From Nitrospirota bacterium (lineage in GTDB: Bacteria > Nitrospirota > UBA9217): a DNA stretch of 64,000 nucleotides. Positions within the stretch are counted from its first letter, which is position 1, and each line of letters opens with the position of its first letter. The stretch is taken from the NCBI GenBank assembly GCA_963740085.1, contig CAVUCU010000004.1, positions 288,001-352,000 of the forward strand. Reading direction: 5' to 3'. The position numbers and the translations under genes are program-made. Under the pieces are notes generated by a model. It saw nothing but the letters and a program-made list of their open reading frames with translations, was not told the origin of the DNA and searched no databases. Shown in pieces: positions 14,790 to 57,707 of the stretch.

Positions 14790-14806
14790 ATTTTTAGGAG
14801 GCAGCC

Positions 14807-15468: not shown

Positions 15469-15483
15469 GGTGATAGGTAAACC

Positions 15484-31079: not shown

Positions 31080-31236
31080 AGTTAAGATTGTGTTACATGC
31101 GGGGTATTTATAGAGAAGAGAAGAAAGTAACAGTGCTATGGATTTCTTTGAGTGGCTGCCGCGCGGGCAATTCCATCCGGTATTCGGAACGTCGTCGTCA
31201 ATCCAAATGTTACATTTCTGTTAAATCTTTTTACAC
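31080..31236 (-). promoter_or_regulatory. PHO-box-like repeats in the divergent arsC / phoB intergenic region
   Basis: tgttaca/agttaag (31080-31097) and tgttaca/tgttaaa (31208-31225) at 11-bp period, minus orientation. Confidence 0.55.
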
Positions 31237-35202: not shown

Positions 35203-35257
35203 TTTCATACAAATTTAACCAGCTTGTAACAAGTATGTAATCCAGGCATGGTAGTAT
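35203..35257 (+). promoter_or_regulatory. Four-unit PHO-box promoter of psiE
   Basis: tttcata/tttaacc/tgtaaca/tgtaatc at 35203/14/25/36; -10 tagtat at 35252. Confidence 0.8.
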
Positions 35258-38672: not shown

Positions 38673-38841
38673 ATTAATTGGAATATCACTTCCTCTTTAT
38701 ACTCCTGTAATGCCAACCTGTATCATCTACCCAATACCCGTTCGATCATCAGATTACTCCCGATGCCGAGCTGACAGGTTAAAACATTTAACAGAAATTT
38801 AACATTTCCGTAATACTGGTGACATATCCAGTATGTATAAT
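38673..38841 (+). promoter_or_regulatory. Tandem pair of four-unit PHO-box promoters
   Basis: Units 38673/84/95/706 with tatcat at 38721; units 38787/98/809/820 with tataat at 38836. Confidence 0.72.
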
Positions 38842-38873: not shown

Positions 38874-39182
38874 ATGATGGATAAAACATGCAGTCTTAAG
38901 TGTCCCGCATGCGCCTCTGAAGCGGTATATAAATACGGCCACTTAAAAAATGGAAAGCAGCGCCTCAAGTGCATTTTGTGCGGAAGACAGTTTGTCATTG
39001 GTATTTCGAGGCATGAAATGAGCAATCGTCCAACCTGTCCCCGATGCGGCCTTAAGATGCACCTTTACATGCATGACAAAATGGCGTTGCGATTCAGATG
39101 TTCGGAATATCCTGATTGTAAATCATATATAAAAATCCCTTATCAAAAGGAGGTCACCTCATATGAAAAGCTATGTTCATAA
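38874..39182 (+). CDS. Double zinc-ribbon protein (InsA-N-like plus topoisomerase C4-like finger)
   Basis: CPAC…YKYG…GKQRLKCILCGRQF and CPRC…FRCSEYPDC. Confidence 0.75.
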   Translation: MMDKTCSLKCPACASEAVYKYGHLKNGKQRLKCILCGRQFVIGISRHEMSNRPTCPRCGLKMHLYMHDKMALRFRCSEYPDCKSYIKIPYQKEVTSYEKLCS

Positions 39183-39534
39183 TGTACCGGGAAGACTGCG
39201 GATAAAGAATGCCCTGTTTAAAAATGTCTCAATCCACTATGAAGTTCGAAAGGCCCTTGTGGATATGGGCCACGGCATCGGAGCCGCTGATTTCAATACG
39301 ACGACGGGCAGCCTTCTGATCAACTACAACCCGACAGAGGTCCATCATCAGGACATCCTGAGCGCCCTCGCGAGGGGAGGTTTTTATCATCCCGACAAAA
39401 CAATAACCAACGATCAGGTGATTCATCAGGCAACGTCCAAGGCATTCAATGTGGTAGCCAGGGCGGTTTCGGGGGCCTTCATCGACACTGCCCTGCAGGG
39501 CACTGGCTTGTCATTTCTGGCAATATTGCTATAA
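39163..39534 (+). CDS. HMA2-domain protein
   Basis: YVHNVPGRLRIK…NTTTGSLLINY; hydrophobic C-terminus; RBS aggagg. Confidence 0.82.
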   Translation: MKSYVHNVPGRLRIKNALFKNVSIHYEVRKALVDMGHGIGAADFNTTTGSLLINYNPTEVHHQDILSALARGGFYHPDKTITNDQVIHQATSKAFNVVARAVSGAFIDTALQGTGLSFLAILL

Positions 39535-39601: not shown

Positions 39602-40477
39602 TTGATGGCATCTCTATTCGAAAAAGTTGAAACGGCAAGCCGGGAGCATGACAATGCCAGATCAGGAGGTATGCCAGTGTCTCCGGAAATGTGCGACTCT
39701 GAATCGCATAGCTTCTCCCTGGCGATGCAAAGGAAGCTGGAGCGCTTTTATGACAGACTCAAGCCTTTTTGTGTAACAACCCTGGGAAGTACCGCCTGCC
39801 TTGAATTCCCCGTTGACTATCTTGAAACCCTAAACCGTCATAACGAAGCAACTATTCGCCGTAAGGAATGGGCTGAAATATATAAAAATCTCGGTGACGG
39901 AAAGCCGGAGTATGATCTTTGGCTGGACAAATATGAAAGCATTCTTCAAGATGCCGATGATTTGCCGATCATCGACCTTGGATGCGGCTATGGAAATGAC
40001 ACGCTCTATCTTCACGAAAGAGGATATAGGGTTGTTTCCTGTGATCTTTCGGCAGAGGCTCTCAAAAGGTTGACTTACTTCATCGCCGAGCCCGTGACAA
40101 AACAATTCGACATGCTGAACGGACTCCCTTTTGCAAAAGATTCGGCAAAGATTATCATCGCAGATCTCTCGCTGCACTATTTCTATTGGGAAGATACCAA
40201 AAGTGTCCTCAATGATATACGAAGGGTGCTCGTAAATGGCGGCCATCTTTTGTGCAGGGTTAATTCCATCAGGGATACGAGCCATGGGGCAGGACAGGGG
40301 CGACGCATAGAGAAAAACTATTTCGAGGTACAAGGTCGTCTAAAAAGGTTTTTTAACAGGGAATGCGTTGAAGATCTTTTCAAAGACTGGTCGATCGAGC
40401 ATATAAACGAGGCCCCCCTGTACAGATATGGGAAAGAGAAGATCCTCTGGGAAGTAGCCGTAAAAAAGGCGAGTTGA
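39602..40477 (+). CDS. Class I SAM-dependent methyltransferase with N-terminal extension
   Basis: IIDLGCGYG, SCDLS, ADLSLHYF; start uncertain. Confidence 0.85.
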   Translation: MMASLFEKVETASREHDNARSGGMPVSPEMCDSESHSFSLAMQRKLERFYDRLKPFCVTTLGSTACLEFPVDYLETLNRHNEATIRRKEWAEIYKNLGDGKPEYDLWLDKYESILQDADDLPIIDLGCGYGNDTLYLHERGYRVVSCDLSAEALKRLTYFIAEPVTKQFDMLNGLPFAKDSAKIIIADLSLHYFYWEDTKSVLNDIRRVLVNGGHLLCRVNSIRDTSHGAGQGRRIEKNYFEVQGRLKRFFNRECVEDLFKDWSIEHINEAPLYRYGKEKILWEVAVKKAS

Positions 40478-40588: not shown

Positions 40589-40891
40589 CTATCTCGTATC
40601 AGAATGCGAATCCCTGTCTTTCTTTTGCCGTATGTAACAATCGAGCAATGAGTCTATATTTTTCCACACCGTCTGGCTCGGTATATACCAGTTAACACGT
40701 ACGACGCTGATAGCCATGGTCATTTTATACTCATCCCACCTTACGCGCAGTACTGCTCCGTGCAGGCGCGTGTCAATGTCCCATGGATTGAATCCCCTTA
40801 TGATAGCCCCGTGCGAGGCTGCTTCAGTAAGTATCTTATCGATACTCGTTTTACTTATATCTCTGTAGTCGCGTGTACTGAATCCCGTCAA
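40589..40891 (-). CDS. Hypothetical protein
   Basis: 100-aa ORF with aaggag RBS, last gene of minus-strand run. Confidence 0.6.
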   Translation of the reverse strand: MTGFSTRDYRDISKTSIDKILTEAASHGAIIRGFNPWDIDTRLHGAVLRVRWDEYKMTMAISVVRVNWYIPSQTVWKNIDSLLDCYIRQKKDRDSHSDTR

Positions 40892-40965
40892 TGGCTGCTC
40901 CTTAGTGGACCTGCAACGTCCGATTTGATCGCATATGAAAGAATCGTAACGGGGAGTAAATCTTT

Positions 40966-41226
40966 TTACAACTCCCGCGAATGGCCCCGCCGGCCTTCTA
41001 CGTCCGCTGTCGGCGTATTGTCACGCACAATGTCTTTTACCCTCTTTGAGACGAGCGCAGAGAGAAAGTATTTGATTCGCGCGGTCCGCGAATAATGCCT
41101 GAATACCATCCCATAGAGAGTCGATACGCGCTCCGTTGGCCGGTTCAGGCTCTGTGCAAGGTTTTCGATCGCGACCTGGTGATGACGTGGTCCAGACTCA
41201 ATATCCTGCAGAATACGTTTGTTCAT
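40966..41226 (-). CDS. Small DUF3562-like three-helix-bundle protein
   Basis: AIENLA…VSTLY…ARIKYFLSALVSKRVKD; ATGA overlap with CDF stop. Confidence 0.7.
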   Translation of the reverse strand: MNKRILQDIESGPRHHQVAIENLAQSLNRPTERVSTLYGMVFRHYSRTARIKYFLSALVSKRVKDIVRDNTPTADVEGRRGHSREL

Positions 41227-42194
41227 GTTTCGTTCCCCCTTTCTAATCCCAAGGGTTCTTGCCAACAGGACGCAGGCTGCAGAAGCATTTGATCCTGCTG
41301 AAAGCCCGGAGTGTGCGCGTCGTGCACCGTCGTTGGAATGTGCTGCTGTATTTCATAACCCTCTATATAAATATCATATAAGCCGAATTTACCCCGCAAT
41401 AATTTCTTCATCCGTCTCATCGTATCACGGCCATATCCAGAACCATTCGTCCTGATCCGTGCCACCAGGATGATCTTATCCGGTGAAAGACCCCAGATAT
41501 GTATGTCCTTGATATGATGTATTTCGGGGAAAGTCTGCTGCAGAAATCTGACGATATCATCTGCATCTATGTTTGCAGGACTCCCTTCCATGAGGATCTT
41601 GATGCTGTCCCTGACCAAAAAAAAGGTCGGATACGCTGCCAGGCATCCGATCAGGATGCCGGCAAGGGGGTCCACAAAATACAGATGGGTATACCGTATG
41701 ATGACGGCAGCACCGATGACGCCCACCGAACCCAGAGTATCGTTCAGGATAAGAAGCAGCGCCCCCTTGATGTTAACATCCTTTGAGTAGCGGTAGAGTT
41801 GCACAAGACCGAAGGCATTCGCCATGAGACCTACAACGGCAATCATGAGGACCTTGTCCGCTTCAATGGGCTGGGGGTGCAGGATTTTCTGGAAGGCTTC
41901 CGTAAAAACATAGAACAGGATGAAGCCGACCAATATCCCGTTAAACAGACCGGAAAGCACTTTAGCGCGTTCGTACCCGAAGGTGTTTACCTTGTCCGGC
42001 CGTCGGCGGACGATCCTGGTCACCCATAACGCGATGATCTGACCTGAGACATTGACGGCCATGAACGACGCGTCCGTCACGAGGGCGATGCTGTGATAAT
42101 AAAGCCCCCCGAACAATTCCACGAAGAAATAGGAGATTGTTACAACAAGAACGAGCGTCTGGCCTTTTACGTGCGTTTCTTCTGTCTCGTGCAT
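41223..42194 (-). CDS. Cation diffusion facilitator (CzcD/ZitB-like) with altered metal site
   Basis: TFGYERAKVL, DIHIW C-terminal domain; TM2 DASFMAVN, TM5 LLILND. Confidence 0.9.
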   Translation of the reverse strand: MHETEETHVKGQTLVLVVTISYFFVELFGGLYYHSIALVTDASFMAVNVSGQIIALWVTRIVRRRPDKVNTFGYERAKVLSGLFNGILVGFILFYVFTEAFQKILHPQPIEADKVLMIAVVGLMANAFGLVQLYRYSKDVNIKGALLLILNDTLGSVGVIGAAVIIRYTHLYFVDPLAGILIGCLAAYPTFFLVRDSIKILMEGSPANIDADDIVRFLQQTFPEIHHIKDIHIWGLSPDKIILVARIRTNGSGYGRDTMRRMKKLLRGKFGLYDIYIEGYEIQQHIPTTVHDAHTPGFQQDQMLLQPASCWQEPLGLERGNET

Positions 42195-42221
42195 GGTCCA
42201 CTGACCTTCCGTATAACTTTG

Positions 42222-43421
42222 TTATTCTTTCAAGAGAGAGGCCTTGTCAGTTAATTCCCAGGGCAGTCCGATATCCATTCTTCCTACATGACCGTACGCC
42301 GCGAGTTTACGATAAAAACCACCCTTGATCTGAGAGGGGAGGTGTCGAAGGTTGAACTGGCGTATGATCCCTGCCGGCCTAAAGTCGAAATGCTTCTGAA
42401 TAAGATCGGCGATGTTTTGATCAGATATTTTACCGGTCCCAAAGGTCTCTGCCTGGATGCTCACCGGTCGCGAAAATCCGATGGAATAGCTGAGCTGCAC
42501 CTCGCAGGCGGCGGCAAGTCCGGCTGCGACAACATTCTTTGCGGCATATCGAGCTGCATAGGCGCCGGTCCTGTCGATCCTTGAAGGGTCTTTCCCGCTC
42601 AAGGCTGCCCCGCTGATACGGGAGTATTCACCGTAGGTATCGATCGCGTTCTTTCTCCCGGTCAACCCTGAGTGCATGGCAGGACCGCCGCCGATAAAGG
42701 GTCCGTCGGGATTGATGAAGATCCGGGTGTGCTTATCAGGCTTGATCTCCTCGTCCTGAAAAACAGGACTCAGCACCGTTTCCCGGATATCGTCCTGGAG
42801 CCGTTTGGCATCGGGCCCCCCTTTGGGGGCCGTCCGCTTTTGGCTTGCAATAATGGTAATGCTGTGAACACGCGACGGTCTGCCGTCACGATATTCAATG
42901 CCGACCTGGGTCTTGCCGTCGGGCGCAAGATAGTCGAGCGTCTTCTGAAGCCGCACGGCCACAAGCTTCCTGGCAAGACGATGGGCGAGCCAGATGGGAA
43001 GCGGCATGAAGGCCGCGGTCTGATTGCAGGCAAAGCCGAACACCGTTACCTGGTTACGTGCAAGGATGCGTTCGATAACTTCCTCGGTCAGGGTACGTTC
43101 ATCGACCGACAAACTGCCGCCCGTAGGCACCTCGGTGAGGCTTGTTATGACGCTGCAGGTCTTTGCATTAAAGGCCCGCTCGTCATAGTCGACCTGGCTT
43201 ATGACCTGCCGGGCGATATTGGCATAATCGATCTTGGCCGAGGTGGCAAACCGCGCTGCGATGAAGACAATGGCCGTGGAAACAGCGCACTCGGCAATGA
43301 TATTCGCATAAGGGTCCTGCTGCAGAACATGATCGACGATCGCATCACTGATGATATCACAGAGCTTGTCAGGGTGGCCTTCGGTAACTGATTCCGAGGT
43401 GAACATGAAGTCCGTTTTCAT
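42222..43421 (-). CDS. metK: Methionine adenosyltransferase-like protein (divergent MetK paralogue)
   Basis: FTSESVTEGHPDK, PDGKTQV, GLTGRK, SGKDPSRIDR; GAGDQG motif replaced by ARNQV. Confidence 0.88.
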   Translation of the reverse strand: MKTDFMFTSESVTEGHPDKLCDIISDAIVDHVLQQDPYANIIAECAVSTAIVFIAARFATSAKIDYANIARQVISQVDYDERAFNAKTCSVITSLTEVPTGGSLSVDERTLTEEVIERILARNQVTVFGFACNQTAAFMPLPIWLAHRLARKLVAVRLQKTLDYLAPDGKTQVGIEYRDGRPSRVHSITIIASQKRTAPKGGPDAKRLQDDIRETVLSPVFQDEEIKPDKHTRIFINPDGPFIGGGPAMHSGLTGRKNAIDTYGEYSRISGAALSGKDPSRIDRTGAYAARYAAKNVVAAGLAAACEVQLSYSIGFSRPVSIQAETFGTGKISDQNIADLIQKHFDFRPAGIIRQFNLRHLPSQIKGGFYRKLAAYGHVGRMDIGLPWELTDKASLLKE

Positions 43422-43448
43422 TGGGCACTCTCCATGCGCGATGCCTGC

Positions 43449-46400
43449 TCAGGTAACTGCGAAAACTTGATTTCCGTGCAATAACGGAACCGGTGTCGTT
43501 GAACTGCCATTCAGCGCAAACGGCGGAGCAGCTTTCTTCTTTGTCGCTTCATTGATGAGCAGCGGAGCGACAGCGGTCCCGATCGAAATCGCCAGGTCAA
43601 AGGGATTCAGCGGGCCCATTCCCAGGAAGCTCCGGAGGCCTGGAACGAACAGGGTAAGCGACTGTACTCCCAGCGAGGCTGTCAGGGCGACGGTAAGATA
43701 GTTGTTCGGTGCGAGCCGGTCAGCCTCAAAGATGCTATGGGTCTCGGAACGGTGGCTGATCGCGTGCAACAGCCCTGCCGTTACGAAGTTTGTGAAGGCC
43801 ATGCTGCTGGCCTGGGGACCCTGCCCGTAACGAAGGACACCGTAGCCGTATGCAGCCAGCGTCCCCGCAGAGATGGTGGACGCCTCGAAGAGAAGCCGTT
43901 TGAAGTCAGACGAATTGATAAGCTGCTCCTCGGGACTTCGCGGAGGCCGCAGAAGCACGTCGGGTTCAGGGGGCTCTTGGGCAAGGGCTATGCCGGGGAA
44001 GATGTCAGAGATCATGTTGATCCAGAGAAGCTGCATGACATTGAACGGCTGTCCCATGCCCGCGGCAAGAGAGGTGAACATGATCATGATCTCGGCCGTG
44101 TTCTTTGAGATCATGTATCTCACGGATTTTCGGAGATTGTTGTAAATCGTCCGCCCTTGGCTGATGGCCACGACCATGGTCTCGAGATTATCATCCTCGA
44201 GAACCACGTCCGCCACCTCTCGCGCCACATCGGTTCCCGTGTGACCCAGGGCGATCCCGATATCGGCTGCCTTGAGCGCGGGTCCGTCGTTGATGCCGTC
44301 TCCGGTCATGCCGATGACCTTTCCCGCTGACTGGAGCGCCTGGACGATCTGAAGTTTGTTTGCCGGGCTCACTCGTGAAAAGACATGCACCCGCCCGGCC
44401 AGAGCCTTCATTACCTCTGGTTCAAGCTGTGCGAGGTGAGTGGAATCAAGGATCTCCAATTCCTCGTCATTGCTGAGATTAAGTTCTTTCCCGATGGCAT
44501 AGGCAGTGGGACCCTGGTCCCCGGTAATCATCACCGTGTCGATCCCCGCTCGGTGGAACGTACTGATCAGGTTCTTAACACCCTTTCGCACCGTATCCGC
44601 CATACCGACGAGGCCGACCCAGACAAGTCCCTGCTGGAGGATCTCTTCGCTTTTTCTTGTGCTTTCGTCGCTCACCGCGTAAGTGACGGCAAGAACCCGG
44701 AGCGCTTCGCCGGCCATACGTTCATTATTCGCTTCGAAGACCGCGCGGGCATTGTCGTCCATTTCCAGTTGCCGGCCGTCCTTGATGTACCATTTGCATA
44801 GTGACAATACATCGGAGGGACTCCCCTTGAGGGCCAGAAGCCGCTGCCGGTCATTCGAACGGTGTATGGTGCTCATATACTGCCGGTCTTCCGATCGGTA
44901 GTTCAACTTCACGATCGGGTGCTGGGCCCGAAGCGAGTTGACATCCACACCGGCGCTGAGCGCAAGGTTCACGAGGGCGTTTTCCGTCGAGGAGCCCTCG
45001 ACGACGTAATCTCCTTCCAATTCTGATACTATCGATTCATTACAAAGCACCGACAGATGGAGCAGACGGAGGACATCCTCGTTCGTATAGGGATTGATGT
45101 TTTTCCCTTCCGCCATGATCCTGCCGTCAACAACATCGAGACGGCGCATGCCGGCATGCAACTGGACCACAGACATCTTGTTCATGGTGATTGTGCCGGT
45201 TTTGTCAAGACAGATGGTCTCGACCGAACCGAGCGTTTCGACGGCGTCAAGGTGACGGACGAGCACGTTCAGTCCCCTCATGCGCTTGATGCCGAGCGCG
45301 AGGGTCGTCGTCGTAACGGTCGGTAGCCCCTCAGGCACTGCGGCCACGGCCAGGGCAATGGAGGTCTTGAGCATCTGGAGAAAACCGTAACCGCGCAGAA
45401 TGCCTACAATGAACACGATGCCGCATACGGCGCAGGTGATATACACCAACTGGACCCCCAGGTGGTCCATCTGCCGTTCCAAGGGCGTATCGGGCGGCCG
45501 CGCCTCTCCCACCATGGTCTGGATCTTTCCGACCTCGGTAAATCGCCCTGTAGCCACGGCGACGGCGAGGCCTTGTCCTCCCGTGACCAGTGTGCCCATA
45601 TAGACCATGTTGGTGCGGTCGGCAAGGGGGATGTCCGGCACATGCAGTTCTTCGGTGGTTTTCATTACCGGCATGCTCTCGCCCGTCAATGCGGACTCAT
45701 CAATGCTCAGGTATTTTGCCTGTATGAGACGGGCGTCGGCCGCAATATAGCTTCCCGGTCTCAGTACGAGCATCTCGCCGGGAACGACCTCCTTGGCATC
45801 AATGGTCGTGATGACTCCGCCGCGGAGCACTATTGACGAAGGCTGTACGAGGCTCTTTAACCCATGGATGATCTTTTCCGTTTGGTTCTCGGTGTAATAC
45901 CCGATGGAGGAATTAATAACGACCACCCCCATGATCACGACGGCATCCGCAAATCCGCCTGTAGCAACGGAAATGCCCGCGGCAACACCAAGGAGAGCTA
46001 CGGGAAGGGACTTGAACTGATCGAAGAACATGCTCCAGCCGGAGCGGGGAACGGATTCGGGCAGAATGTTGGGACCATATTGGATGAACAAAAGACGGGC
46101 TGCTTCTTCGGACAGGCCTTCTGACGCCGAGGTGCCCCATCGCTGCAGCACATCCTTCCCTTCCATGCAGTGCCATTGCTCTTCCTGCTGGTCTTCGGCA
46201 TTGGCAACCTGTTTGCGAACGGTCCGCAGGCTAGGCGTTTTCTTGCCAGCAGTGGTAAGGTCGGGAGAGACGTCGGCGCGCACGGGCCGGACAACAACTG
46301 TTTCTTTCTTCTGCGACACAGCAGGGAACGGGTTTTTCTTCCCCTTGACCGGCTTGCCATTTTTGCGTTCGACTACGGACTTCAGGAGGGAAGCTACTGC

Positions 46401-46595
46401 TGATGCATGGTTGCCGTTCTGTGAATCGAACAGCACGAGAACGCTGCCCGTGAGGGTATTGATCGAAACGCTCAGGATCCACTTGTGCTGTGTGAGATGC
46501 TGCTCGATCCGCTGTTTCAACTGCTCTGAGCGATAAAGACCCTCTACCTTATAACGGGCCCGCCCTTTTACCGACGTATGAACGGCTTGGACCAC
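43449..46595 (-). CDS. P2A-type (Ca2+-like) P-type ATPase with N-terminal HMA2-like domain
   Basis: TGES, VPEGL, DKTGT, TGDGIND, TM5 SKNTAE, TM6 WINMISD; N-terminus HTSVKGRARY…NTLTGSVLV. Confidence 0.93.
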   Translation of the reverse strand: MVQAVHTSVKGRARYKVEGLYRSEQLKQRIEQHLTQHKWILSVSINTLTGSVLVLFDSQNGNHASAVASLLKSVVERKNGKPVKGKKNPFPAVSQKKETVVVRPVRADVSPDLTTAGKKTPSLRTVRKQVANAEDQQEEQWHCMEGKDVLQRWGTSASEGLSEEAARLLFIQYGPNILPESVPRSGWSMFFDQFKSLPVALLGVAAGISVATGGFADAVVIMGVVVINSSIGYYTENQTEKIIHGLKSLVQPSSIVLRGGVITTIDAKEVVPGEMLVLRPGSYIAADARLIQAKYLSIDESALTGESMPVMKTTEELHVPDIPLADRTNMVYMGTLVTGGQGLAVAVATGRFTEVGKIQTMVGEARPPDTPLERQMDHLGVQLVYITCAVCGIVFIVGILRGYGFLQMLKTSIALAVAAVPEGLPTVTTTTLALGIKRMRGLNVLVRHLDAVETLGSVETICLDKTGTITMNKMSVVQLHAGMRRLDVVDGRIMAEGKNINPYTNEDVLRLLHLSVLCNESIVSELEGDYVVEGSSTENALVNLALSAGVDVNSLRAQHPIVKLNYRSEDRQYMSTIHRSNDRQRLLALKGSPSDVLSLCKWYIKDGRQLEMDDNARAVFEANNERMAGEALRVLAVTYAVSDESTRKSEEILQQGLVWVGLVGMADTVRKGVKNLISTFHRAGIDTVMITGDQGPTAYAIGKELNLSNDEELEILDSTHLAQLEPEVMKALAGRVHVFSRVSPANKLQIVQALQSAGKVIGMTGDGINDGPALKAADIGIALGHTGTDVAREVADVVLEDDNLETMVVAISQGRTIYNNLRKSVRYMISKNTAEIMIMFTSLAAGMGQPFNVMQLLWINMISDIFPGIALAQEPPEPDVLLRPPRSPEEQLINSSDFKRLLFEASTISAGTLAAYGYGVLRYGQGPQASSMAFTNFVTAGLLHAISHRSETHSIFEADRLAPNNYLTVALTASLGVQSLTLFVPGLRSFLGMGPLNPFDLAISIGTAVAPLLINEATKKKAAPPFALNGSSTTPVPLLHGNQVFAVT

Positions 46596-46650
46596 GTACG
46601 ATTCCTCCCCATCTGAAATGGAAGCCGGTCACAAGCCAGGCAAGAACTGA

Positions 46651-47379
46651 TTAAGCCCGTTGCGACTTCGGCAGGGCGGTGCCAGCGACTTCTTTCACGC
46701 CTTCTACAACGCCGACCAGCATGTCCTTGACCGCCTTGACGGCTGTGTTGCCGATCAAAGATGCCGCATCGATCGCGCCCGTGACAGCAACCTTTGCAAC
46801 CTCCTCTGCATTCCCACCGACTTCCTTCGTGGCTTCGATCACGCCGTCTACGGCCCGCCGGGCAACCATGGCTACATCCGCACCGACCTCGGCCGCACCC
46901 TTGACAGCTCCTCTGACGGTCTGGCCTGCAACGGAAATCACGTCGCCGCCAACATCGCTCACTCCCATGATCACCCCTTTTGCAACGCTCTTGGTGCTCA
47001 GGATGAGGCCGGTGCCGACCTCTTCAGTAGCCTGAATGGCGCCCTTGACCACATCTTTCGTGATGTCAATTGCTTCGCCGGCGACCATGCCGGTTGCCCG
47101 CAGCGAATTGGAAACGGTGTTCCTGACAAGGCTGACTATCTCTGCTTCGATCTCGTTGATCCCCTTGAGACTGCTCACGACGCCCTCTTTCACGGTAGAG
47201 CCTGCTTTGCCGATGTCCTGGGCTGAAAATACAACTTCCGTGGCCTCTGCGCTTGTCATGTCTGTTCCTCCTCTTGTAGTCTTCGTTGTTGAGACTAGAT
47301 CATCCGATTTTGATGACGTGCCGCGCGGACTACGTTTCACGGACTTCTTCGTCGGCGCTTTTTGTTTTTGGTCACTCAT
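46651..47379 (-). CDS. 22-aa amphipathic repeat protein with basic N-terminal tail
   Basis: KGAIQATEEVG…/KGVIMGVSDVG…/RGAVKGAAEVG…/DGVIEATKEVG…/TGAIDAASLIG at 22-aa period. Confidence 0.8.
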   Translation of the reverse strand: MSDQKQKAPTKKSVKRSPRGTSSKSDDLVSTTKTTRGGTDMTSAEATEVVFSAQDIGKAGSTVKEGVVSSLKGINEIEAEIVSLVRNTVSNSLRATGMVAGEAIDITKDVVKGAIQATEEVGTGLILSTKSVAKGVIMGVSDVGGDVISVAGQTVRGAVKGAAEVGADVAMVARRAVDGVIEATKEVGGNAEEVAKVAVTGAIDAASLIGNTAVKAVKDMLVGVVEGVKEVAGTALPKSQRA

Positions 47380-47556
47380 AGTGTTACTCCTCCCAAGGTT
47401 TTATAATAATCGCATTACATTTTGTAGCCGGGTAGTTTGATAATTCCGGGGAACGGACTTCTGGTAAATGCCGGATTGTATTGCTTCTTAATGCCTTCGG
47501 AGCTAACAAGGCGGACACAGATGGAAGGGTTCCCGTCTTTCTCAGTGCTGCCAACG

Positions 47557-48045
47557 TTATTTCTTTTCGCCTTCTTTCACTATCTTTGAGTGGAGATTAT
47601 AAGCGTACCAGTACGCCGAGGACCACGGGATGGCCCCTCCATTCCCCGTCAGAATCTGCGCACTACCCGCCACAATCAGGGCTGCAACTGCAAAACCGCG
47701 CAGATCCATATCGCCGTCCGTGAGGTTCTGTATCTGCCGATCAATGCGCTTGAACGTCTCGCCAAGGTTTCGGTTAAGTTCTGCAGGGCGTACCCTGGAA
47801 CTCTTTTGTTCCTCTAAGGAAAAAAGATCCCCCGACCTTGCATACTCCGCAATCTCACGCACTGTCGTTTGGTGAAGCAAGAGTATACTCCCCGTACCCG
47901 GGTTCACCTCGATGGAGAGAACACCCGGACAAGCGGCAAGCTGATCCCCGTATGACTTCAGTGCCGCTAGGTTGCCTTTTTGTGAGGGGACCCTGATCCG
48001 TAATCTCCCGGTTGAAGTATGGGCGATGACGGCAGCCGGGATCAT
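47557..48045 (-). CDS. HMA2-domain membrane protein
   Basis: AHTSTGRLRIRVP…VNPGTGSILL; C-terminal TM with PW…YWY. Confidence 0.82.
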   Translation of the reverse strand: MIPAAVIAHTSTGRLRIRVPSQKGNLAALKSYGDQLAACPGVLSIEVNPGTGSILLLHQTTVREIAEYARSGDLFSLEEQKSSRVRPAELNRNLGETFKRIDRQIQNLTDGDMDLRGFAVAALIVAGSAQILTGNGGAIPWSSAYWYAYNLHSKIVKEGEKK

Positions 48046-48392
48046 GACGTGGCTGGCCTGGGCCTGCGTTTGGAGATTGCAGCCGTTACTGCAACCGGTG
48101 CCGCAGCCGGTGCCGCAACCGTGTCATTCACCGCTTCTGCTGCAGCCGCAGTCGTCTCGGCCAGTTCCGCCTTAGCTTCAGCCACAATATCTTCCGTAAT
48201 TTCAGCGATCTCGGCAAAGGCTTCCTTGCCGCGTTCATACATCTGCATACCTCCTTTTATCGCGGCTTTTGCCAGCGGCTTTGCGATCGTGGCAAACAGA
48301 GGAATGACTACGGGCGCCAGTACTGCGGCGCCGATACCGATTGCCAAACCGGTAATAAGACTACCTTTCAATCCACTATCTAACAGTCCCAT
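48042..48392 (-). CDS. DUF5132-like GxxxG membrane protein
   Basis: GLAIGIGAAVLAP…KPLAKAAIKGG…EDIVAEAKAE; Ala/Pro linker, basic tail. Confidence 0.82.
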   Translation of the reverse strand: MGLLDSGLKGSLITGLAIGIGAAVLAPVVIPLFATIAKPLAKAAIKGGMQMYERGKEAFAEIAEITEDIVAEAKAELAETTAAAAEAVNDTVAAPAAAPVAVTAAISKRRPRPATS

Positions 48393-48421
48393 AATAGCAT
48401 GATCTCCTTTCTATAAAATTA

Positions 48422-48437
48422 ATTGTAGTACTACAAT
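48422..48437. promoter_or_regulatory. Perfect 16-bp palindrome, candidate operator
   Basis: attgtagtactacaat, 30 bp upstream of the DUF5132 start. Confidence 0.55.
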
Positions 48438-48503
48438 GATGCAAAGTCTATCTTCTCTTTCATTACTTACCTACTAGTACTTGAGCAGCCAGTTCATTGC
48501 GCA

Positions 48504-48899
48504 TTACGCTTCAACACGGTTTTTTTTTGGTGCTTTCATGCGTGCCCTGGAGCCAGTCTTTGAACGCTTTGCAATGCTCTTGCCCTCGAGTATCCCGATC
48601 TGCGCTTCAAGGTCCTTGATTCGGGCCATGATCTCTTTGACACCTGCATTGAGAGCAGGGTTTTTGGCTTTGGCACTGCTTATGAGAACATACGTCTTGG
48701 CGCCGAGGTCGGTAATCGCTTCGTGGATCCGTGTCTTGAGTGTCAATACCTTGTACTGACGTTTCTTTTCTTTCGTGAGTTCCCCGGCTTTCTTCTGCAT
48801 CTCGACGGCGCCTTGTTTCACTGCCGCCATGCTTTTTTCCAGCCCTTGTTGCACGTCTTTTTTTATCTTGTTCCAGTTGAAGCCTTCCAAATATCCCAT
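48504..48899 (-). CDS. Helical coiled-coil protein with basic C-terminal tail
   Basis: RBS aggagg; amphipathic N-terminus, heptads, KRSKTGSRARMKAPKK tail. Confidence 0.72.
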   Translation of the reverse strand: MGYLEGFNWNKIKKDVQQGLEKSMAAVKQGAVEMQKKAGELTKEKKRQYKVLTLKTRIHEAITDLGAKTYVLISSAKAKNPALNAGVKEIMARIKDLEAQIGILEGKSIAKRSKTGSRARMKAPKKNRVEA

Positions 48900-49272
48900 T
48901 CGGTAACCTCCTGTAGTATGGAATGCTCAATTCATAAGTTAGAAGTATAGCACGCAAGAGTGTTTCTGGTAGTGAGATCATTAATAAACTTAAGGATGAA
49001 GTAAAAAAATAGCAGTGAGTGTATAAAATAACAGACAACTTGAAATGTAAATCTGGGACAAGAGCAAAAAATCTTGGACACGGATAAAGATGGAGTTTGT
49101 TATGAAAAGGCTGGATTACGTTATTGATTCATCCGCTTTGGTCACGGCCTGTTATCTGATTTTCTCCGTCGTGCCAGCGCTTATGAGTGTGTGTGCGAGG
49201 CAGGGTGTGTCAAAGATCTATTTTTTTGTCTGCTGCTGAGGGCCGCACCATAATCTTGGTATAATAGTATTT

Positions 49273-49953
49273 ATGGCTGCCGAAACAAAGCGTGACAGGA
49301 CTGAATGGGTGATACTGCTGCACGGCCTGGGCCGCTTCAGGCAATCCATGCGCAGGCTCGAGCAGCATCTGAAAAGCCGCGGCTATTCGACCATAAACCT
49401 CGCCTATCCCTCGACAACCAAATCGATCGAGACGATCGCCGAAATGCATCTTGCAGGCGCTGTAGATGTTTGTCAAAAGCAGGGTGCGGGGAAAGTCCAT
49501 TTCGTCGGTCACTCCCTTGGTGGCATTATCGTCCGTCAGTACTTGCAGCAACATCCTGTGCCCGCAGGCAGCCGGCTCGTTATGCTCTCATCGCCCAACC
49601 AGGGCAGTGAGCTCGCCGATCTGCTCATGCATGTCCCTCTCTACCGATGGATTATCGGACCGGCCGGACAGGAGCTCGGCAGGGGACCGGAGTCGGTGGT
49701 CAATCGCTTGAAGCCGGTCGGGATCGACATCGGCGTGATCGCGGGTAACTTGAGCATCAATCTTGTGTCCTCCGTGTTTATGGACGGCCCTCATGATGGC
49801 ACAGTTTCGGTGAAGAGCACCATGCTTCCGGAGATGAGAGACTTCATCGTCGTCCACAACACGCACACGTTTATTATGAGAGACCCGCTGGTAATGAGGC
49901 AGGTCACACATTTTCTCAGGCACGGCAGGTTCGACCACAGTGGGGCGGGATGA
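49273..49953 (+). CDS. Alpha/beta hydrolase (lipase/esterase)
   Basis: LLHGLG, GHSLGG, PNQGS, HDGTVSV, HTFI. Confidence 0.9.
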   Translation: MAAETKRDRTEWVILLHGLGRFRQSMRRLEQHLKSRGYSTINLAYPSTTKSIETIAEMHLAGAVDVCQKQGAGKVHFVGHSLGGIIVRQYLQQHPVPAGSRLVMLSSPNQGSELADLLMHVPLYRWIIGPAGQELGRGPESVVNRLKPVGIDIGVIAGNLSINLVSSVFMDGPHDGTVSVKSTMLPEMRDFIVVHNTHTFIMRDPLVMRQVTHFLRHGRFDHSGAG

Positions 49954-50233
49954 ACTGAATAGTAGCATCATTTGACACACAGTAATTTATATGTTGAAAA
50001 TGCTCAGCGTGAGATCGTCATGAAGCCGACAATCAAATTGAAATTATATATCACAATTCCCTGTGACTTAAAAGTAGGGATTTAATGATTGCTGCACTAC
50101 TATTACGTGTGCTTATGATAAAATAGAAAGAAAGGTCTCCCGGCGATTTCTTGGGTAAAAGGGAGATAAAAATTAAGACCGTCGAAACGAAGGTCATAGC
50201 TTGCGGTACTATATTAAATTAAGGAGTCGAACA

Positions 50234-50794
50234 ATGACAAACTCATTAACAACGGTACTTGAAAAAGTTCAGAACGGCCTTGGACAGGGCGGGGTTTTAG
50301 ATCAGGTCGATAAAATATTTCGGAAGCAGCAAAGAATCAATTTATTTGAAAAGCTCGAAAAGATCGATAATAAAGAGGTAGATAATTTCCCCGTCTCTCT
50401 TTATAAGAGCATCACGCCAAATGGCAAAAAACAGCCTGCCTTATTGCGCTTTTACCTTCCGTCCTGGAAAGGTCACGACGAGATCTTTTGGCACTCGCTC
50501 GGCGATTATGTTATTCTCGCGCTTCACCGGGTGACCGACGTTGACTTCGACAGCTCCAGAGGCCGGATGAAGGTGGCATATTTCCCCAAGATAAAAGGCC
50601 GGACAAAACACCCGGACGACATCAGGGTCGTCATCCAAAAAATTGCCTATCTTGTGGATACCGAAGCTTTGCCGACAGACTTTACCCGCTTCCGGCGCAT
50701 GACGGAACGACGAGGCAGTTTGGGCGAGATGAGCAAGTTCGAGGCCGCGGTACTAGGAACAATAATAGCGGAAGTTCCTACGATCTTAAGGTAG
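50234..50794 (+). CDS. Hypothetical protein
   Basis: 186-aa ORF with aaggag RBS; no recognised motif. Confidence 0.65.
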   Translation: MTNSLTTVLEKVQNGLGQGGVLDQVDKIFRKQQRINLFEKLEKIDNKEVDNFPVSLYKSITPNGKKQPALLRFYLPSWKGHDEIFWHSLGDYVILALHRVTDVDFDSSRGRMKVAYFPKIKGRTKHPDDIRVVIQKIAYLVDTEALPTDFTRFRRMTERRGSLGEMSKFEAAVLGTIIAEVPTILR

Positions 50795-51036
50795 AATATG
50801 AAAAATCAGGATTATTAGCAATACGATCAAAGTGGCTTTATCTTTGCTAAGATTTCCCGATCATTGCAGCATACAGTGAGAGGCGGATCAGGCATTCATC
50901 ATGAGGATATTCAGGACATCAATTGGGCAATGACCGTGCGTTCATATTATTGATGAAAATCATTCTGCACTGCCTCGCAAAACCCTCGATGACTGCTGAA
51001 CCCGCAACGCAGACCTGATCCGAGACTGTCAATAAA

Positions 51037-51204
51037 ATTAATTGAAATTTCATACCCTCTTCATACTCCTGTAATACCTTTTCTGTATCATTGACCAAAC
51101 CCTGATTCGCCCCCCAATATTCCTATTTGCGAAAGCACAAATTATTATTCTTAACACAAATTTAATGTTATCTTCATACTATTGTAACAACAAAAGTATA
51201 AGAT
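51037..51204 (+). promoter_or_regulatory. Tandem pair of four-unit PHO-box promoters of the lipid operon
   Basis: Units 51037/48/59/70 with tatcat at 51086; units 51150/61/72/83 with taagat at 51199. Confidence 0.78.
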
Positions 51205-51211
51205 ATTTTCA

Positions 51212-51904
51212 ATGCTTCTGTGCGATTTTCATATTCACACTACCTTTTCGGACGGGTCGGTTGAGATAAGGAAAACGATCGATCTTTTCGGACAGGCAGG
51301 CTTTGATGCCATCGCCATTACGGACCATGTCGTGAACGGCGATAACGTGATGGGTAAGTTCGCGCGACAGTTCAACCTGTCAATTCGGGGCGATAATTTT
51401 GATGAATATCTTTCCGCAGTCAGGTCGGAGGCGGCGCGGGCATGGGACAAATACGGGATGCTCGTCATCCCGGGTGTCGAGATCAGCAAGAATTACATAT
51501 CGAAGGATCATTCAGCCCATCTCCTCATTCTCGATATCAAAGAATTCATCCCCGCCTGCATGGACTACGAGGAGATCTTTCTCGAAGCTAAGCGCCAGGA
51601 AACCCTGACCGTTGCGTGTCACCCTCACCATACCCCGGATATGGTAAACAAAGACACGCTCTATCTCTGGAACAACCGAGACAAGTATGCAAAATATATC
51701 GATGCCTGGGAGATCGCGAACCGGGATGACGTTTTCAACGTGATCAGTCTGAAAAAATATCCTTATATTGCCAACAGTGATTTCCACAAAGTGCGCCACC
51801 TCTACTCGTGGAAAACACTGCTGAACTGCGAAAAGAACATCGACTCGGTCAAAAACTGCATAAAGCACAATAAAGGAGTCGCAATCACGCTCTTCAGGAA
51901 TTGA
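51212..51904 (+). CDS. PHP-domain phosphoesterase
   Basis: DFHIHTTFSDG, AITDH, PGVEI, CHPH, NSDFH. Confidence 0.9.
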   Translation: MLLCDFHIHTTFSDGSVEIRKTIDLFGQAGFDAIAITDHVVNGDNVMGKFARQFNLSIRGDNFDEYLSAVRSEAARAWDKYGMLVIPGVEISKNYISKDHSAHLLILDIKEFIPACMDYEEIFLEAKRQETLTVACHPHHTPDMVNKDTLYLWNNRDKYAKYIDAWEIANRDDVFNVISLKKYPYIANSDFHKVRHLYSWKTLLNCEKNIDSVKNCIKHNKGVAITLFRN

Positions 51905-51954
51905 ATGATGATGGATCAAACATCTCATAAGCGCCACACTCAGGGAGGAACCGC

Positions 51955-53193
51955 ATGACCATATTTACCATATGTGCTGCGATCTCAATTGTAGGGATCA
52001 TTCTCTACCTGCTTCAGATTGGAGCAACGTATTCACTCTTGAGAAAAAAGCCGAAACCGGACGCAGGAATAACGGCGAGCAAAAAGGATCATACCCCGTC
52101 GGTGTCGATCTTGAAACCCCTTAAGGGACTTGACGACAATCTATTTGACAACCTCGAAAGCTTTTGCACCCAGGATTATCCTGAGCACGAAGTTCTTTTT
52201 AGTCTTCAGGACCTCAATGATCCAGCCTATAAAGTAGCAAAAAAAGTACAAGACAAATACCCTGACCGGGACATATCTATCATAGTTGAAAAGTGCAATG
52301 CCGGTCTCAACCCGAAAGTAAACAACCTCATCCCGGCATATCGCAAAGCCCGTCATCCCTATATACTTATCAGCGACAGCAATGTTATGGTTGGCAACCG
52401 CTATCTTCGGGAGATTGCCCGATATACCCGGGACCCGTCGGTCGGGCTTGTCAGCAACCTCATCCAGGGCGTTGGCGGTCGCAGTTTCGGCGCAATTCTT
52501 GAGAACCTTCATCTCAATTCTTTCATTATGGGCAGCGTCACCTTTCTGGACAGGTTCCTTGGAATGCCCTGCGTTATTGGAAAGTCCATGCTCATGAAAA
52601 AAGTCGATCTGGAGGCGTTGGGAGGGCTGATTGCCTTCAAAGATATCCTGGCCGAGGACTTCATTATTGGCAGAGAGATGCAGAAGAGCGGGAAACAAGT
52701 GGTCCTGTCGAACTATTTGGTCAGCAATGTCAATGAGTACTGGGGCGTCAAGAGATTTCTGAATAGACATACGCGATGGGGCAAACTCAGGTGGAAGATC
52801 GGCGGAGCAAAATATTTGTCCGAACTGCTTGCCAATCCGGTAGTTATGGCGACATTGCCCATTCTGCTCAAGGGGCCGTCGCGCGAAACACTCTCATTTG
52901 CGGCCTTCATAGGACTTATCAAGGTCCTCGGCGATTTCATGCTCGGAAGAAAGATCGAATCAGCAGCACATGCGGATTTTCACAAACAATCACCACTCCT
53001 CTATTTCCTCTCTCCGATCAAGGATCTGTTCATCGGGGTACTGTGGTTCATCCCTCTTTTGAGTTCAACGGTAGTCTGGCGGGGAAATCGGTATGTGATC
53101 GGACGCGATTCCCGTTTGTCGCTCTGTCCGGAGACCGGCGTATGGTCCTGGGGCTATCGTATCACGGACAGTATTCGCGCCCGGATAGCATAA
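51955..53193 (+). CDS. GT21 ceramide-glucosyltransferase / HpnI-like glycosyltransferase
   Basis: VSILKPLKGLD, NPKVNNL, ISDS, GKSM, LAED, RHTRW. Confidence 0.9.
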   Translation: MTIFTICAAISIVGIILYLLQIGATYSLLRKKPKPDAGITASKKDHTPSVSILKPLKGLDDNLFDNLESFCTQDYPEHEVLFSLQDLNDPAYKVAKKVQDKYPDRDISIIVEKCNAGLNPKVNNLIPAYRKARHPYILISDSNVMVGNRYLREIARYTRDPSVGLVSNLIQGVGGRSFGAILENLHLNSFIMGSVTFLDRFLGMPCVIGKSMLMKKVDLEALGGLIAFKDILAEDFIIGREMQKSGKQVVLSNYLVSNVNEYWGVKRFLNRHTRWGKLRWKIGGAKYLSELLANPVVMATLPILLKGPSRETLSFAAFIGLIKVLGDFMLGRKIESAAHADFHKQSPLLYFLSPIKDLFIGVLWFIPLLSSTVVWRGNRYVIGRDSRLSLCPETGVWSWGYRITDSIRARIA

Positions 53194-53197
53194 GCGC

Positions 53198-53647
53198 GTG
53201 ACGGATCGATCAGTCAAGGTAGGGGGAACTGTGCAGCGGAATAAACGAAAAGTCCTTTTGATGGAAGATGAAGAATTACTGAGGTCGGTTACGCAGAGCG
53301 CTCTCGAAAAAAAAGGATATTCAGTACAGGTGATGGGAAACGGTGAAGAAGCAATCGAGGGTTATCGAAAAGCAAAAGAGGCCGGTTGTCCCTATGATGC
53401 AGTAATTGTGGATCTGAACATCCCGCACGGCAAGGGGGGCAAGGAAACAATCAAAGGTCTGCTTGAACTGGACCCTGATGTTAAGGTCATTGTATCGAGC
53501 GGCGACATTCTCGATCCGGCGCTGACGAACTTCAGGGATTACGGCTTTATCGGGAAACTGACAAAACCCTTCACCCGCGAAGAGCTGTTCGGGGTACTTC
53601 ACCGGGCGCTCGATGCGAGGGAAGGGGCTGCGTCAAAAAGATTCTAA
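53198..53647 (+). CDS. Single-domain response regulator
   Basis: LMEDE, IVDLNIP, VSSG, KPF. Confidence 0.88.
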   Translation: MTDRSVKVGGTVQRNKRKVLLMEDEELLRSVTQSALEKKGYSVQVMGNGEEAIEGYRKAKEAGCPYDAVIVDLNIPHGKGGKETIKGLLELDPDVKVIVSSGDILDPALTNFRDYGFIGKLTKPFTREELFGVLHRALDAREGAASKRF

Positions 53648-53711
53648 ATAATTGATCGGACGGAATGAGCTGTGGAACGAGGCATCATGCTGTTGGAGGG
53701 GGTAATGCAAA

Positions 53712-57652: not shown

Positions 57653-57707
57653 TGTAACCAACATTTAACCCAGGCTTCATACTCCTGTAACAGAATCGGG
57701 GTATAGT
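57653..57707 (+). promoter_or_regulatory. Four-unit PHO-box promoter
   Basis: tgtaacc/tttaacc/cttcata/tgtaaca at 57653/64/75/86; -10 tatagt at 57702. Confidence 0.78.

Follow-up and report, generated by a model that had tools for sequence, protein, structure and literature searches.

To our knowledge, the genetic blueprint is known for only a handful of lipid-bounded bacterial organelles. Here, we analysed a gene cluster that recalls one of them and is built around a calcium-class P-type ATPase; it lies at positions 40589-48899 of a 64,000-nucleotide stretch of DNA from a Nitrospirota bacterium (GenBank assembly GCA_963740085.1, contig CAVUCU010000004.1, positions 288,001 to 352,000 of the forward strand; this whole stretch is called the window below). 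Among the closest described systems is the ferrosome, reported to hold iron phosphate. As far as the accessible text of the ferrosome preprint goes, the fez operon is sufficient for the formation of ferrosome granules in E. coli, the ATPase FezB is defined by the motifs D[Y/F]SCA and HNxxT, FezB and partner proteins carry an N-terminal RxR or RxRxR stretch, FezC combines an HMA-like domain with two membrane helices, and GxxxG proteins (FezA/E/G) are present in nearly all fez clusters. A further point of reference is ccyA, which encodes calcyanin and is described as a marker of intracellular amorphous CaCO3. In the available part of a Microcystis preprint, its neighbours in Microcystis aeruginosa PCC 7806 are two DUF5132 genes and the genes for a CoBaHMA-hairpin protein, a further CoBaHMA protein, a coiled-coil protein and a Ca2+/H+ exchanger, and several of these neighbours are co-expressed with ccyA. 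The same text equates the Pfam family HMA_2 (PF19991) with the CoBaHMA domain, first defined in calcyanin. As given in the accessible section of PMC8890360, this domain is marked by a His conserved in strand beta0 and by basic residues in beta1/beta2, and it has no CxxC motif.

An earlier note on this DNA had described a co-oriented gene run at this place, and we confirmed nine open reading frames (ORFs) between 40589 and 48899, all on the minus strand. Pfam and NCBIfam assigned a family to six of them (DUF5132, HMA_2, P-type ATPase, MetK, CDF and DUF3562) and none to 46651-47379, 48504-48899 and 40589-40891. The predicted core of the module is a DUF5132 protein (48042-48392, 116 amino acids (aa), PF17195 E 8.3e-13), a CoBaHMA (HMA_2) protein with a C-terminal helical hairpin (47557-48045, 162 aa, PF19991 52.2 bits; the hairpin protein below), an optional amphipathic-helix protein made of 22-residue (2 x 11) repeats (46651-47379, 242 aa, recognised by its periodicity), a CoBaHMA-bearing P2A-type (Ca2+-class) P-type ATPase (43449-46595, 1048 aa, HMA_2 and P2 domains) and a MetK paralogue (42222-43421, 399 aa, TIGR01034 375.8 bits, cut-off 309.4). 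A zinc-ribbon/CoBaHMA gene pair is a frequent satellite. The first two proteins had been put forward as a DUF5132-like GxxxG protein and an HMA2 membrane protein, and their Pfam scores bear this out. We tentatively take the locus to encode a ferrosome-like system that loads a cation, namely calcium, and is linked to phosphate status, with a probability of about 0.45.

The pump begins with a CoBaHMA domain (approximately residues 4-75; HMA_2 match at residues 4-63, 39.4 bits, cut-off 30), which is followed by a basic linker (76-140) and a P2 core composed of Cation_ATPase_N, E1-E2, Hydrolase and Cation_ATPase_C. The N-terminal GRxR stretch, previously called HMA2-like, thus belongs to a CoBaHMA domain. 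Among NCBIfam models the best were IIA2/PMR1 (610.5 bits, cut-off 798.3) and IIA1/SERCA (531.6 bits, cut-off 703.4), both below their equivalog cut-offs; the nearest solved relatives were SPCA1 (499.7 bits), Listeria LMCA1 (463.5) and SERCA (about 405). The pump contains DKTGT, and its transmembrane helix 4 (TM4) reads VPEGLP. On alignment to SERCA2 and SPCA1, residues N832..E835 of TM5 correspond to SERCA N768/E771, where SPCA1 has S..A, and N860..S863-D864 of TM6 correspond to SERCA N796/T799/D800. The SERCA-type PEGL, TM5 N..E and TM6 N..SD motifs proposed in the earlier note were therefore confirmed, as was its assignment of the pump to the P2A rather than the P1B-6 type, for the P2A domains and site residues are present and D[Y/F]SCA and HNxxT are missing. 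Residues H6, G11, R12, R14 and R22 are invariant in 14 homologues. Both the pump and the hairpin protein have the beta0 His and the basic beta1/beta2 residues and contain no CxxC.

The small partners have a distinctive build. The DUF5132 protein starts with a hydrophobic glycine-zipper helix (G15xxxG19xG21, with G19 invariant in 22 homologues) and continues as a long charged helix; the end of its gene overlaps the start of the hairpin-protein gene by 4 nt. In the hairpin protein the PF19991 match covers the whole chain (model positions 10-153), R14 and R16 are invariant in 25 homologues and H9 is frequent. Its AlphaFold2 (AF2) model (pLDDT 87.3) shows beta0 and a ferredoxin-like fold with helices at 88-108, 115-133 and 141-161, that is, an intermediate helix and a two-helix hairpin, and Foldseek matched this model to HMA, MerP and YAM domains with a probability of about 1, all with E above 1e-3. 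In six cyanobacterial loci DUF5132 is fused with the hairpin of the CoBaHMA protein in the gene preceding the pump, and in L017 a single protein of 282 aa comprises DUF5132, CoBaHMA and hairpin. As for the repeat protein, its BLOSUM self-correlation peaks at lags 22 and 44 and its hydrophobic moment is highest at a period of 3.67 (11/3), which confirms the 22-mer amphipathic repeat noticed earlier. The nearest Atlas clusters are named 'hypothetical' and 'Phasin family protein' (0.93), a lead only, and the protein is a candidate membrane or granule coat.

The gene set was then compared with fez clusters. Arg-rich N-termini are present in the pump (G11-R12-A-R14) and in the hairpin protein (G13-R14-L-R16-I-R18), and the latter also has a FezC-like architecture, an HMA-type domain plus helical hairpin, the likeness being one of architecture and not of FezC sequence. 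The pump has VPEGLP in TM4 in place of the FezB signature and no other PF19991-bearing pump exists in the genome; thus the cluster is not fez. Since all three PF19991 matches and the one PF17195 match of the 3.46-Mb genome are located inside this cluster, it can also be concluded that the genome has no separate fez cluster. A kinship can nevertheless be followed through other pumps. In the phylum of the window, P1B pumps with a CoBaHMA N-terminus (TM4 ACPCA, DFGTG or DYGTG) are flanked by DUF5132 and CoBaHMA proteins, the DUF5132 scores being 23.6 and 17.3 bits, below the Pfam cut-off of 25. PF19991 occurs in 122 of 251 Desulfovibrionales genomes, and nine regions fetched from this order encode pumps with DYSCA or DFACA plus HNxxT; these FezB-signature pumps adjoin an ACPCA pump (PF19991 50.6 bits), a CoBaHMA protein of 104-105 aa (35.7 bits) and, mostly, a GxxxG protein of 105 aa. 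The last gave a probability of 73% (E 3.1e-5) against the DUF5132 profile in hhalign, and a hidden Markov model (HMM) of our own gave E values of 2e-5 to 1e-3, which is suggestive of homology between DUF5132 and the fez GxxxG proteins. At the level of CoBaHMA proteins, sequence comparison indicates that a kit is common to this module and to the fez-signature clusters. The idea of a ferrosome toolkit coupled to another pump therefore stands in part: CoBaHMA proteins are shared with FezB-signature clusters and the same kit accompanies P1B pumps, but the locus is not a fez cluster. Likewise, of the homology to Fez proteins that had been suggested for the small proteins, the CoBaHMA part is supported and the DUF5132 part is no more than suggested by the hhalign match.

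We also observed P1B-like ATPases with a CoBaHMA N-terminus in L110-L113, L063, L069 and L072 in which TM4 carries DFGTG or DYGTG/DYGTA instead of a Cys-containing metal motif, again with DUF5132 and CoBaHMA neighbours. The DFGTG/DYGTG pumps may represent an uncharacterised class akin in form to the D[Y/F]SCA of FezB.

Conservation of the set was assessed by a scan of one genome per species, which yielded 80 related loci whose six-frame ORFs were searched with the window proteins. Iterated models for the CoBaHMA proteins ('HMA2b', length 329, and 'HMA2mem', 198) drifted to generic CoBaHMA detectors, and the subsets were re-checked with Pfam and clean sub-models. Of the top 120 relatives in the database, which share 58% identity or more with the pump, nearly all combine PF19991 with P2 domains. 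We found 61 near-complete pumps with the N-terminal domain, and 51 of these have at least 1.3 kb of downstream sequence; the MetK paralogue directly follows the pump in 45 of the 51, with a 4-nt overlap in 17, and one further pump and MetK pair (L043) is masked by a merged ORF. For 33 loci the available flanks reach 3 kb or more upstream and 6 kb or more downstream; 32 of these have DUF5132, 31 a CoBaHMA protein of 120-260 aa, 28 the MetK paralogue and 16 the repeat protein, homologues of which occur in 27 when all 80 loci are counted. DUF5132 and the hairpin protein are thus core partners, MetK is a tight partner of the pump, and the repeat protein is a frequent but non-universal one. With the same arrangement in dozens of loci across several phyla, the run cannot be due to chance, and the co-occurrence of DUF5132, HMA2, P2A and MetK-like genes on which the earlier note had staked its proposal proved to be strongly conserved.

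The closest hosts are other Nitrospirota (85-86% identity). The remaining ones belong to many families of Thermodesulfobacteriota, to Cyanobacteriota including Chlorogloeopsis fritschii PCC 6912, to Chromatiaceae and other Gammaproteobacteria, Nitrosospira, Alphaproteobacteria, Binatia, Rokubacteria, Methylomirabilota, Acidobacteriota and Oligoflexus; cultured carriers are C. fritschii PCC 6912, Nitrosospira sp. Nsp14, Oligoflexus tunisiensis and Thermodesulfatator autotrophicus. Within the phylum of the window PF19991 is present in 58 of 301 genomes, in at least 31 of them (the genome of the window counted) inside a frame of 1011-1083 aa, and it was matched in 2 of 8 other genomes of the same genus, a patchy distribution. 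The module is horizontally spread. In a FastTree phylogeny of the pump core (6 of 81 rows, shorter than 840 aa, excluded), all 62 CoBaHMA-bearing pumps fell within one clade of 69 with a support of 100. The seven members of this clade that do not have the domain are four truncated or frameshifted sequences (L036, L040, L068, L070) and three cyanobacterial pumps (L047, L055, L060); no partner genes were found beside these three, nor beside the six P2A pumps of the outgroup (L078-L081, L083, L084), in which the N-terminal domain is missing as well. Within the pump tree, the MetK paralogue occurs only in a crown clade of 58 (support 97).

C. fritschii PCC 6912 has two pump and MetK-like pairs. 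The second of them (L106, G001:C1:1572000-1591900) consists of a pump at 12635-15830 and a MetK-like gene at 16340-17542, with no DUF5132 detected at this locus; the reading frame of this pump is broken into two (12635-15520 and 15510-15830), pointing to a frameshift or a sequencing error. An EcsC-family protein is encoded beside the module in four proteobacterial loci (L065, 5918-7249; L041, L048 and L062).

The MetK paralogue differs in a consistent manner from its housekeeping counterpart. Its TIGR01034 score is above the cut-off yet well below the 604.3 bits of the housekeeping metK, located on another contig, so the description of the gene as a divergent MetK holds. Four other paralogue-bearing genomes retain a housekeeping metK too, and Oligoflexus, in which the module has no MetK paralogue, possesses the housekeeping gene only. 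Homologues were taken by single-pass phmmer (E <1e-20), an iterated HMM having been dropped after it grew to cover 171 ORFs; hits of lengths other than 370-480 aa (8 of 57) were excluded from the alignment and tree. A quick IQ-TREE analysis placed 51 module copies in one clade against 6 housekeeping copies (SH-aLRT 100). We mapped the residues on the E. coli-numbered chain 7ll3 and counted them over 50 paralogues. D16, K17, E42, R244, K245, K265 and D271 are conserved in all 50 and H14 in 47; K269 is R in every paralogue. D238 is H in 50/50, and E55 is replaced by R (42), H (7) or Q (1). Position D118 is N in 28, D in 10, H in 6 and another residue in 6, the adenine-stacking F230 is variable, and the gating-loop Gln (Q98) is not kept, its column being variable and mostly L. 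A different loop takes the place of the gating loop, and there is a C-terminal insert. According to the part of PMC6850014 available to us, human methionine adenosyltransferase (MAT) contacts the nitrogen of methionine through Glu70 and Asp258 and its oxygen through Gln113, and the patient variant D258G loses S-adenosylmethionine (SAM) synthesis and keeps phosphatase activity; with the human-to-E. coli offset of 15-20 residues, Glu70, Asp258 and Gln113 are E55, D238 and Q98. The residues for Mg, K and triphosphate are thus conserved and the acidic methionine pocket has been turned basic. Since the metal and triphosphate site is kept and the methionine pocket is rebuilt in this way, the paralogue is probably not a normal SAM synthetase.

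Calcium is the favoured candidate for the transported ion, on the grounds of the pump class, the site residues and the neighbouring Na_Ca_ex genes. Such exchanger genes were seen inside the module or next to it in five loci, which belong to three lineages, and four of the five were confirmed by Pfam. Exchanger genes of this family (Na_Ca_ex, CaCA) are located at L051 5063-5560, L016 7143-8087, L054 16928-17929 and L044 1689-2759. In L051 the exchanger gene stands directly after the pump, the usual position of the MetK paralogue. C. fritschii PCC 6912 is reported, in the accessible section of PMC8890360, to have Ca- and P-rich inclusions; together with its two pump pairs this is circumstantial support, since such inclusions are common. 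No gene of the window is annotated as calcyanin, no search aimed at calcyanin having been made. The earlier note had also considered an acidocalcisome-like polyphosphate store. This fits poorly: neither PPK1 (PF13090, PF02503) nor PPK2 (PF03976) was found in the genome, which is 98.5% complete, and a polyphosphate store is thus unlikely in this host, although a gene missing from an incomplete assembly is no proof. An H+-pyrophosphatase (H+-PPase) is present on another contig (C5). An apparent anticorrelation between PPK1 and the module over the 301 genomes of the phylum was rejected as a lineage effect, PPK1 being found chiefly in families f9 and f17, most of whose genomes have no HMA_2, and the module chiefly in f1, f11 and f18.

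The module is surrounded by phosphate-related genes. In the window these comprise PhoB/PhoR-like genes, a metallophosphoesterase, PsiE, a PstS-like gene followed by pst and phoU homologues, and lipid-remodelling genes. The placement among Pho genes pointed out earlier was verified in this way, and other loci show a Pho link too: L008, L009, L014, L052 and L054 have pstB and phoU no more than 10 kb away, the first three of them with pstS as well, and partial sets were found in L018 (pstS only) and L053 (phoU only). On the plus strand, just beyond the downstream end of the minus-strand run, an accessory operon starts with a gene for a basic double zinc-ribbon protein (38874-39182, 102 aa), which gave weak hits to zinc-ribbon models; its homologue in L009 scores 35.1 bits on Zn_ribbon_IS1595. 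It is overlapped by 20 nt by the gene for a small soluble CoBaHMA protein (39163-39534, 123 aa), which is just under the PF19991 cut-off of 30 (28.6 bits), and the L009 homologue of the latter reaches 57.0 bits. The zinc-ribbon gene is present in 12 of the 80 loci, usually adjoining the small CoBaHMA gene. The next gene, for a SAM-dependent methyltransferase (39602-40477, plus strand, 291 aa, Methyltransf_11 E 4.2e-15), is a doubtful member, and no homologue of it was found in the 80 related loci.

A Pho-box-like site precedes this operon. It consists of three phased copies of T[G/T]TAACA with 11-bp spacing (38787-38815, plus strand; zero- and two-mismatch matches), 59-87 nt ahead of the start codon of the zinc-ribbon gene. 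The pattern T[G/T]TAACA-N4-T[G/T]TAACA, allowing three mismatches or fewer, occurs 32 times in the window against 8.1 +/- 3.1 expected, and none of 100 shuffles reached 32. The best sites precede pstS, phoB, psiE and the zinc-ribbon gene. The motif is present before pstS in L008 and L009 too; ahead of the zinc-ribbon gene the motif was found in 7 of 14 loci, the background being 0.021 per 310 bp. The phased motif looks like the Pho box of this lineage, marking a local Pho regulon, and it would be the site at which PhoB acts. Phased copies were likewise noted at 31080-31225, 35203-35242, 51150-51189, 57653-57692 and 59037-59076, before phoB-like, psiE, PHP-domain, hybrid kinase and pstS-like genes, respectively.

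Upstream of the module, 49273-56691 encodes an alpha/beta hydrolase, a PHP-domain protein, a GT21 glycosyltransferase, a response regulator, acyltransferase+GNAT (OlsF-like) and LPG_synthase_TM, a run that resembles a set for phosphorus-free membrane lipids. Conservation beside the module is lacking for these lipid genes: of the 80 loci, one has OlsF and none has GT21 or LPG synthase. PHP and/or GT4-type glycosyltransferase genes were seen near it in L015, L026, L037 and L077; L026, checked by Pfam, gave no PHP hit.

The other genes of the minus-strand run are local additions. The Lys/Glu-rich protein of 131 aa, a possible coiled coil (48504-48899; weak Pfam hints, E about 0.02), is encoded 111 nt upstream of the DUF5132 gene and has a homologue in 1 of the 80 loci (L006). 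The CDF divalent-cation transporter (41223-42194, 323 aa, TIGR01297 183.7 bits; ZitB model 162 bits, below the cut-off of 408) has homologues in two (L006 and L014), the small basic DUF3562 protein (40966-41265, 99 aa, PF12085 28.1 bits, cut-off 26.3), an occasional neighbour, in seven, and the hypothetical 100-aa ORF without a family at 40589-40891, a doubtful gene, in one. Since these four are lineage-specific, they lie outside the conserved core. The gene list that the earlier note had treated as one set is thus upheld for DUF5132, HMA_2, the pump and the MetK-like gene, and reduces to local features for the coiled-coil protein, the CDF, DUF3562 and the last ORF. The GC content of the module (0.55-0.57) is above that of its immediate flanks. 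At 28908-30107 (minus strand) helix-turn-helix domains and a weak rve_3 integrase-core match indicate a probable transposase, located at a low-GC stretch (0.43-0.49) that precedes the Pho genes. A promoter and terminator scan gave signals at or below the shuffle level.

In the reading we prefer, the cluster is a ferrosome-like module that loads calcium and is tied to phosphate status. Gene content, its conservation, the fusions, the clades, the residue changes and the motif positions are observations; from them we infer an organelle or granule as well as the transported ion, the compartment, its mineral, the control by PhoB and the activity of the MetK paralogue. The CoBaHMA-P2A pump would take Ca2+, and possibly further divalent cations, out of the cytoplasm and load them into a small compartment bounded by a membrane, or into a specialised domain of the membrane, and the hairpin protein, DUF5132 and the repeat protein would shape or coat the membrane concerned. 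There the cation would be retained with phosphate, or carbonate; as ferrosomes store iron as phosphate, a calcium-phosphate analogue is plausible. Phosphate status would act through the Pho-box-like site ahead of the zinc-ribbon/CoBaHMA operon. For the MetK paralogue we expect a pump-linked function, either the binding or hydrolysis of ATP or tripolyphosphate or a reaction with another nucleophile of more anionic character.

Several findings weigh against this reading. As to phosphate control, the upstream regions of the main operon (48380-49290) contain no Pho-box-like site, even at three mismatches, and elsewhere such a site stands at only 5 of 59 DUF5132 genes. The failure to find PPK1 and PPK2, described above, counts on the same side. 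As to the pump, the SERCA TM8 glutamate E908 is replaced by G here and by Q in the consensus of the family, and the pump may therefore differ from SERCA in ion stoichiometry and specificity; moreover, bacterial P2A pumps with solved structures, LMCA1 among them, are ordinary calcium pumps according to their PDB titles. The deepest pump branches (L069, L072, L063, L066, L073, L064, L075, L076) have no MetK paralogue, which is thus not essential to the basic kit. The link to ferrosomes is weakened as well: the N-terminus of FezB itself scores only 23.7 bits on PF19991, under the cut-off, the GxxxG protein of fez clusters gives no Pfam DUF5132 hit, and the iron-homeostasis neighbours typical of fez clusters were not seen at this locus.

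The main rival, which we consider a serious possibility, is an ordinary efflux pump for Ca2+ (or Mn2+) in the cytoplasmic membrane, regulated by DUF5132 and the hairpin protein as small regulators and by an autoinhibitory or anionic-lipid-sensing CoBaHMA domain, with no organelle involved. LMCA1-type bacterial P2A pumps are presumably located in the plasma membrane, SERCA and Na,K-ATPase use single-helix regulators, and the nearest solved relatives of the pump, SPCA1, LMCA1 and SERCA, are calcium pumps. The gene fusions and the tight linkage would fit a stable pump-regulator complex equally well, the hosts differ greatly in lifestyle (nitrifiers, cyanobacteria, sulfate reducers), and work cited in the accessible part of the Microcystis preprint proposes a regulatory, anionic-lipid-binding role for CoBaHMA. 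However, a pump of this kind leaves the 11/3-periodic repeat protein, the MetK paralogue and the linkage to pst/phoU unexplained, and it does not account for the relation of the kit to gene clusters that suffice for ferrosome formation.

The phosphate setting could also be taken as the key, in which case the locus would be a device for phosphate starvation that deals with cations and short chains of phosphate: the MetK paralogue would free Pi by tripolyphosphatase activity or ATP cleavage and the pump would remove the released Ca2+, alongside phosphorus-free lipid genes. The module is flanked by phoBR-like and pstSCAB-phoU genes and has glycosyltransferase, OlsF-like and LPG-synthase-TM genes as neighbours, which is in line with this, as are the Pho-box-like site of the accessory operon, the PHP/glycosyltransferase neighbours in four other loci and a MetK paralogue in which the triphosphate site is kept and the methionine site lost. 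We regard such a device as unlikely, given that without PPK1 or PPK2 in the genome there is no obvious polyphosphate to mobilise, that no Pho box was detected at the main operon and that the lipid genes are not conserved beside the module. Least likely of all, in our view, is that the paralogue is a genuine divergent SAM synthetase supplying SAM locally to a methyltransferase or for lipid methylation, with the rest being a cation pump operon. The TIGR01034 score above the cut-off and the SAM-dependent methyltransferase gene at 39602-40477 speak for it, but both residues that hold the methionine nitrogen are replaced (R or H in 49/50 at E55, H in 50/50 at D238), the gating-loop Gln is lost, the adenine-stacking Phe is variable, the methyltransferase is without homologues in the 80 loci and a housekeeping metK is retained in every paralogue-bearing genome tested.

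A bolder form of the ferrosome-like reading, doubtful as a whole, would make the module a new organelle, in which a ferrosome-like vesicle with a calcium-class pump stores Ca with orthophosphate or carbonate as a Pho-switched phosphorus and cation reserve in PPK-less lineages. In it the MetK paralogue would be neofunctionalised, with SAM synthesis lost and triphosphate or ATP cleaved or sensed, and DUF5132, a CoBaHMA hairpin protein and a CoBaHMA-tagged transporter would together form a universal kit for compartments of cation minerals, with exchangeable cargo: Fe with P1B-6, Ca with P2A or CAX, and other metals with D[Y/F]GTG pumps. Should the module prove to act as its fez relatives do, the ferrosome kit would be general and cargo-swappable in this sense. 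The module could then offer a genetic handle on intracellular calcium mineral formation beyond cyanobacteria and a route of phosphate storage in anaerobes without polyphosphate kinases. The large MetK subfamily with its invariantly rebuilt methionine pocket is a clean target for enzymology, and the module should be directly testable, as cultured carriers exist and fez provides a precedent for heterologous expression. Literature searches on ferrosomes, CoBaHMA, PF19991, intracellular carbonate and MetK paralogues, which did not cover Gaschignard et al. 2024 (CoBaHMA) and the supplementary tables of the ferrosome and calcyanin papers, returned no module of P2A and MetK-like genes. We judge the gene set to be undescribed in the literature covered by the search and a relative of known ferrosome-type kits, with a pump of another class and an added MetK paralogue.

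Compared with known systems, the module shares with acidocalcisomes the idea of a membrane-bounded store of Ca plus phosphate, and an H+-PPase is encoded in the genome; it differs in that this enzyme lies on another contig, PPK1 and PPK2 were not found and no defining acidocalcisome component belongs to the module. SERCA, SPCA1/PMR1 and LMCA1 have the same P2A domain set with DKTGT, PEGLP, TM5 N..E and TM6 N..(S/T)D, whereas the pump of the window adds the CoBaHMA domain and basic linker, is without the TM8 glutamate and has dedicated conserved partners. With MetK (methionine adenosyltransferase) the paralogue has in common the three-domain fold family and the Mg, K and triphosphate residues, and it is set apart by E55R/H, D238H, K269R, the other loop, the C-terminal insert and its status as a second copy in every genome tested. 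The ccyA neighbourhood presents the same trio of partner types beside a calcium transporter, which there is a Ca2+/H+ exchanger in place of a P2A ATPase; a MetK paralogue is not mentioned in the available part of that source. Fez clusters too combine a P-type ATPase with an Arg-rich N-terminus, a small HMA-like protein with two helices and small GxxxG proteins. The cluster of the window has a P2A pump instead, adds the MetK paralogue and the 11-mer repeat protein, and the module keeps company with Pho, pst and Na/Ca-exchanger genes rather than with Fur or Feo.

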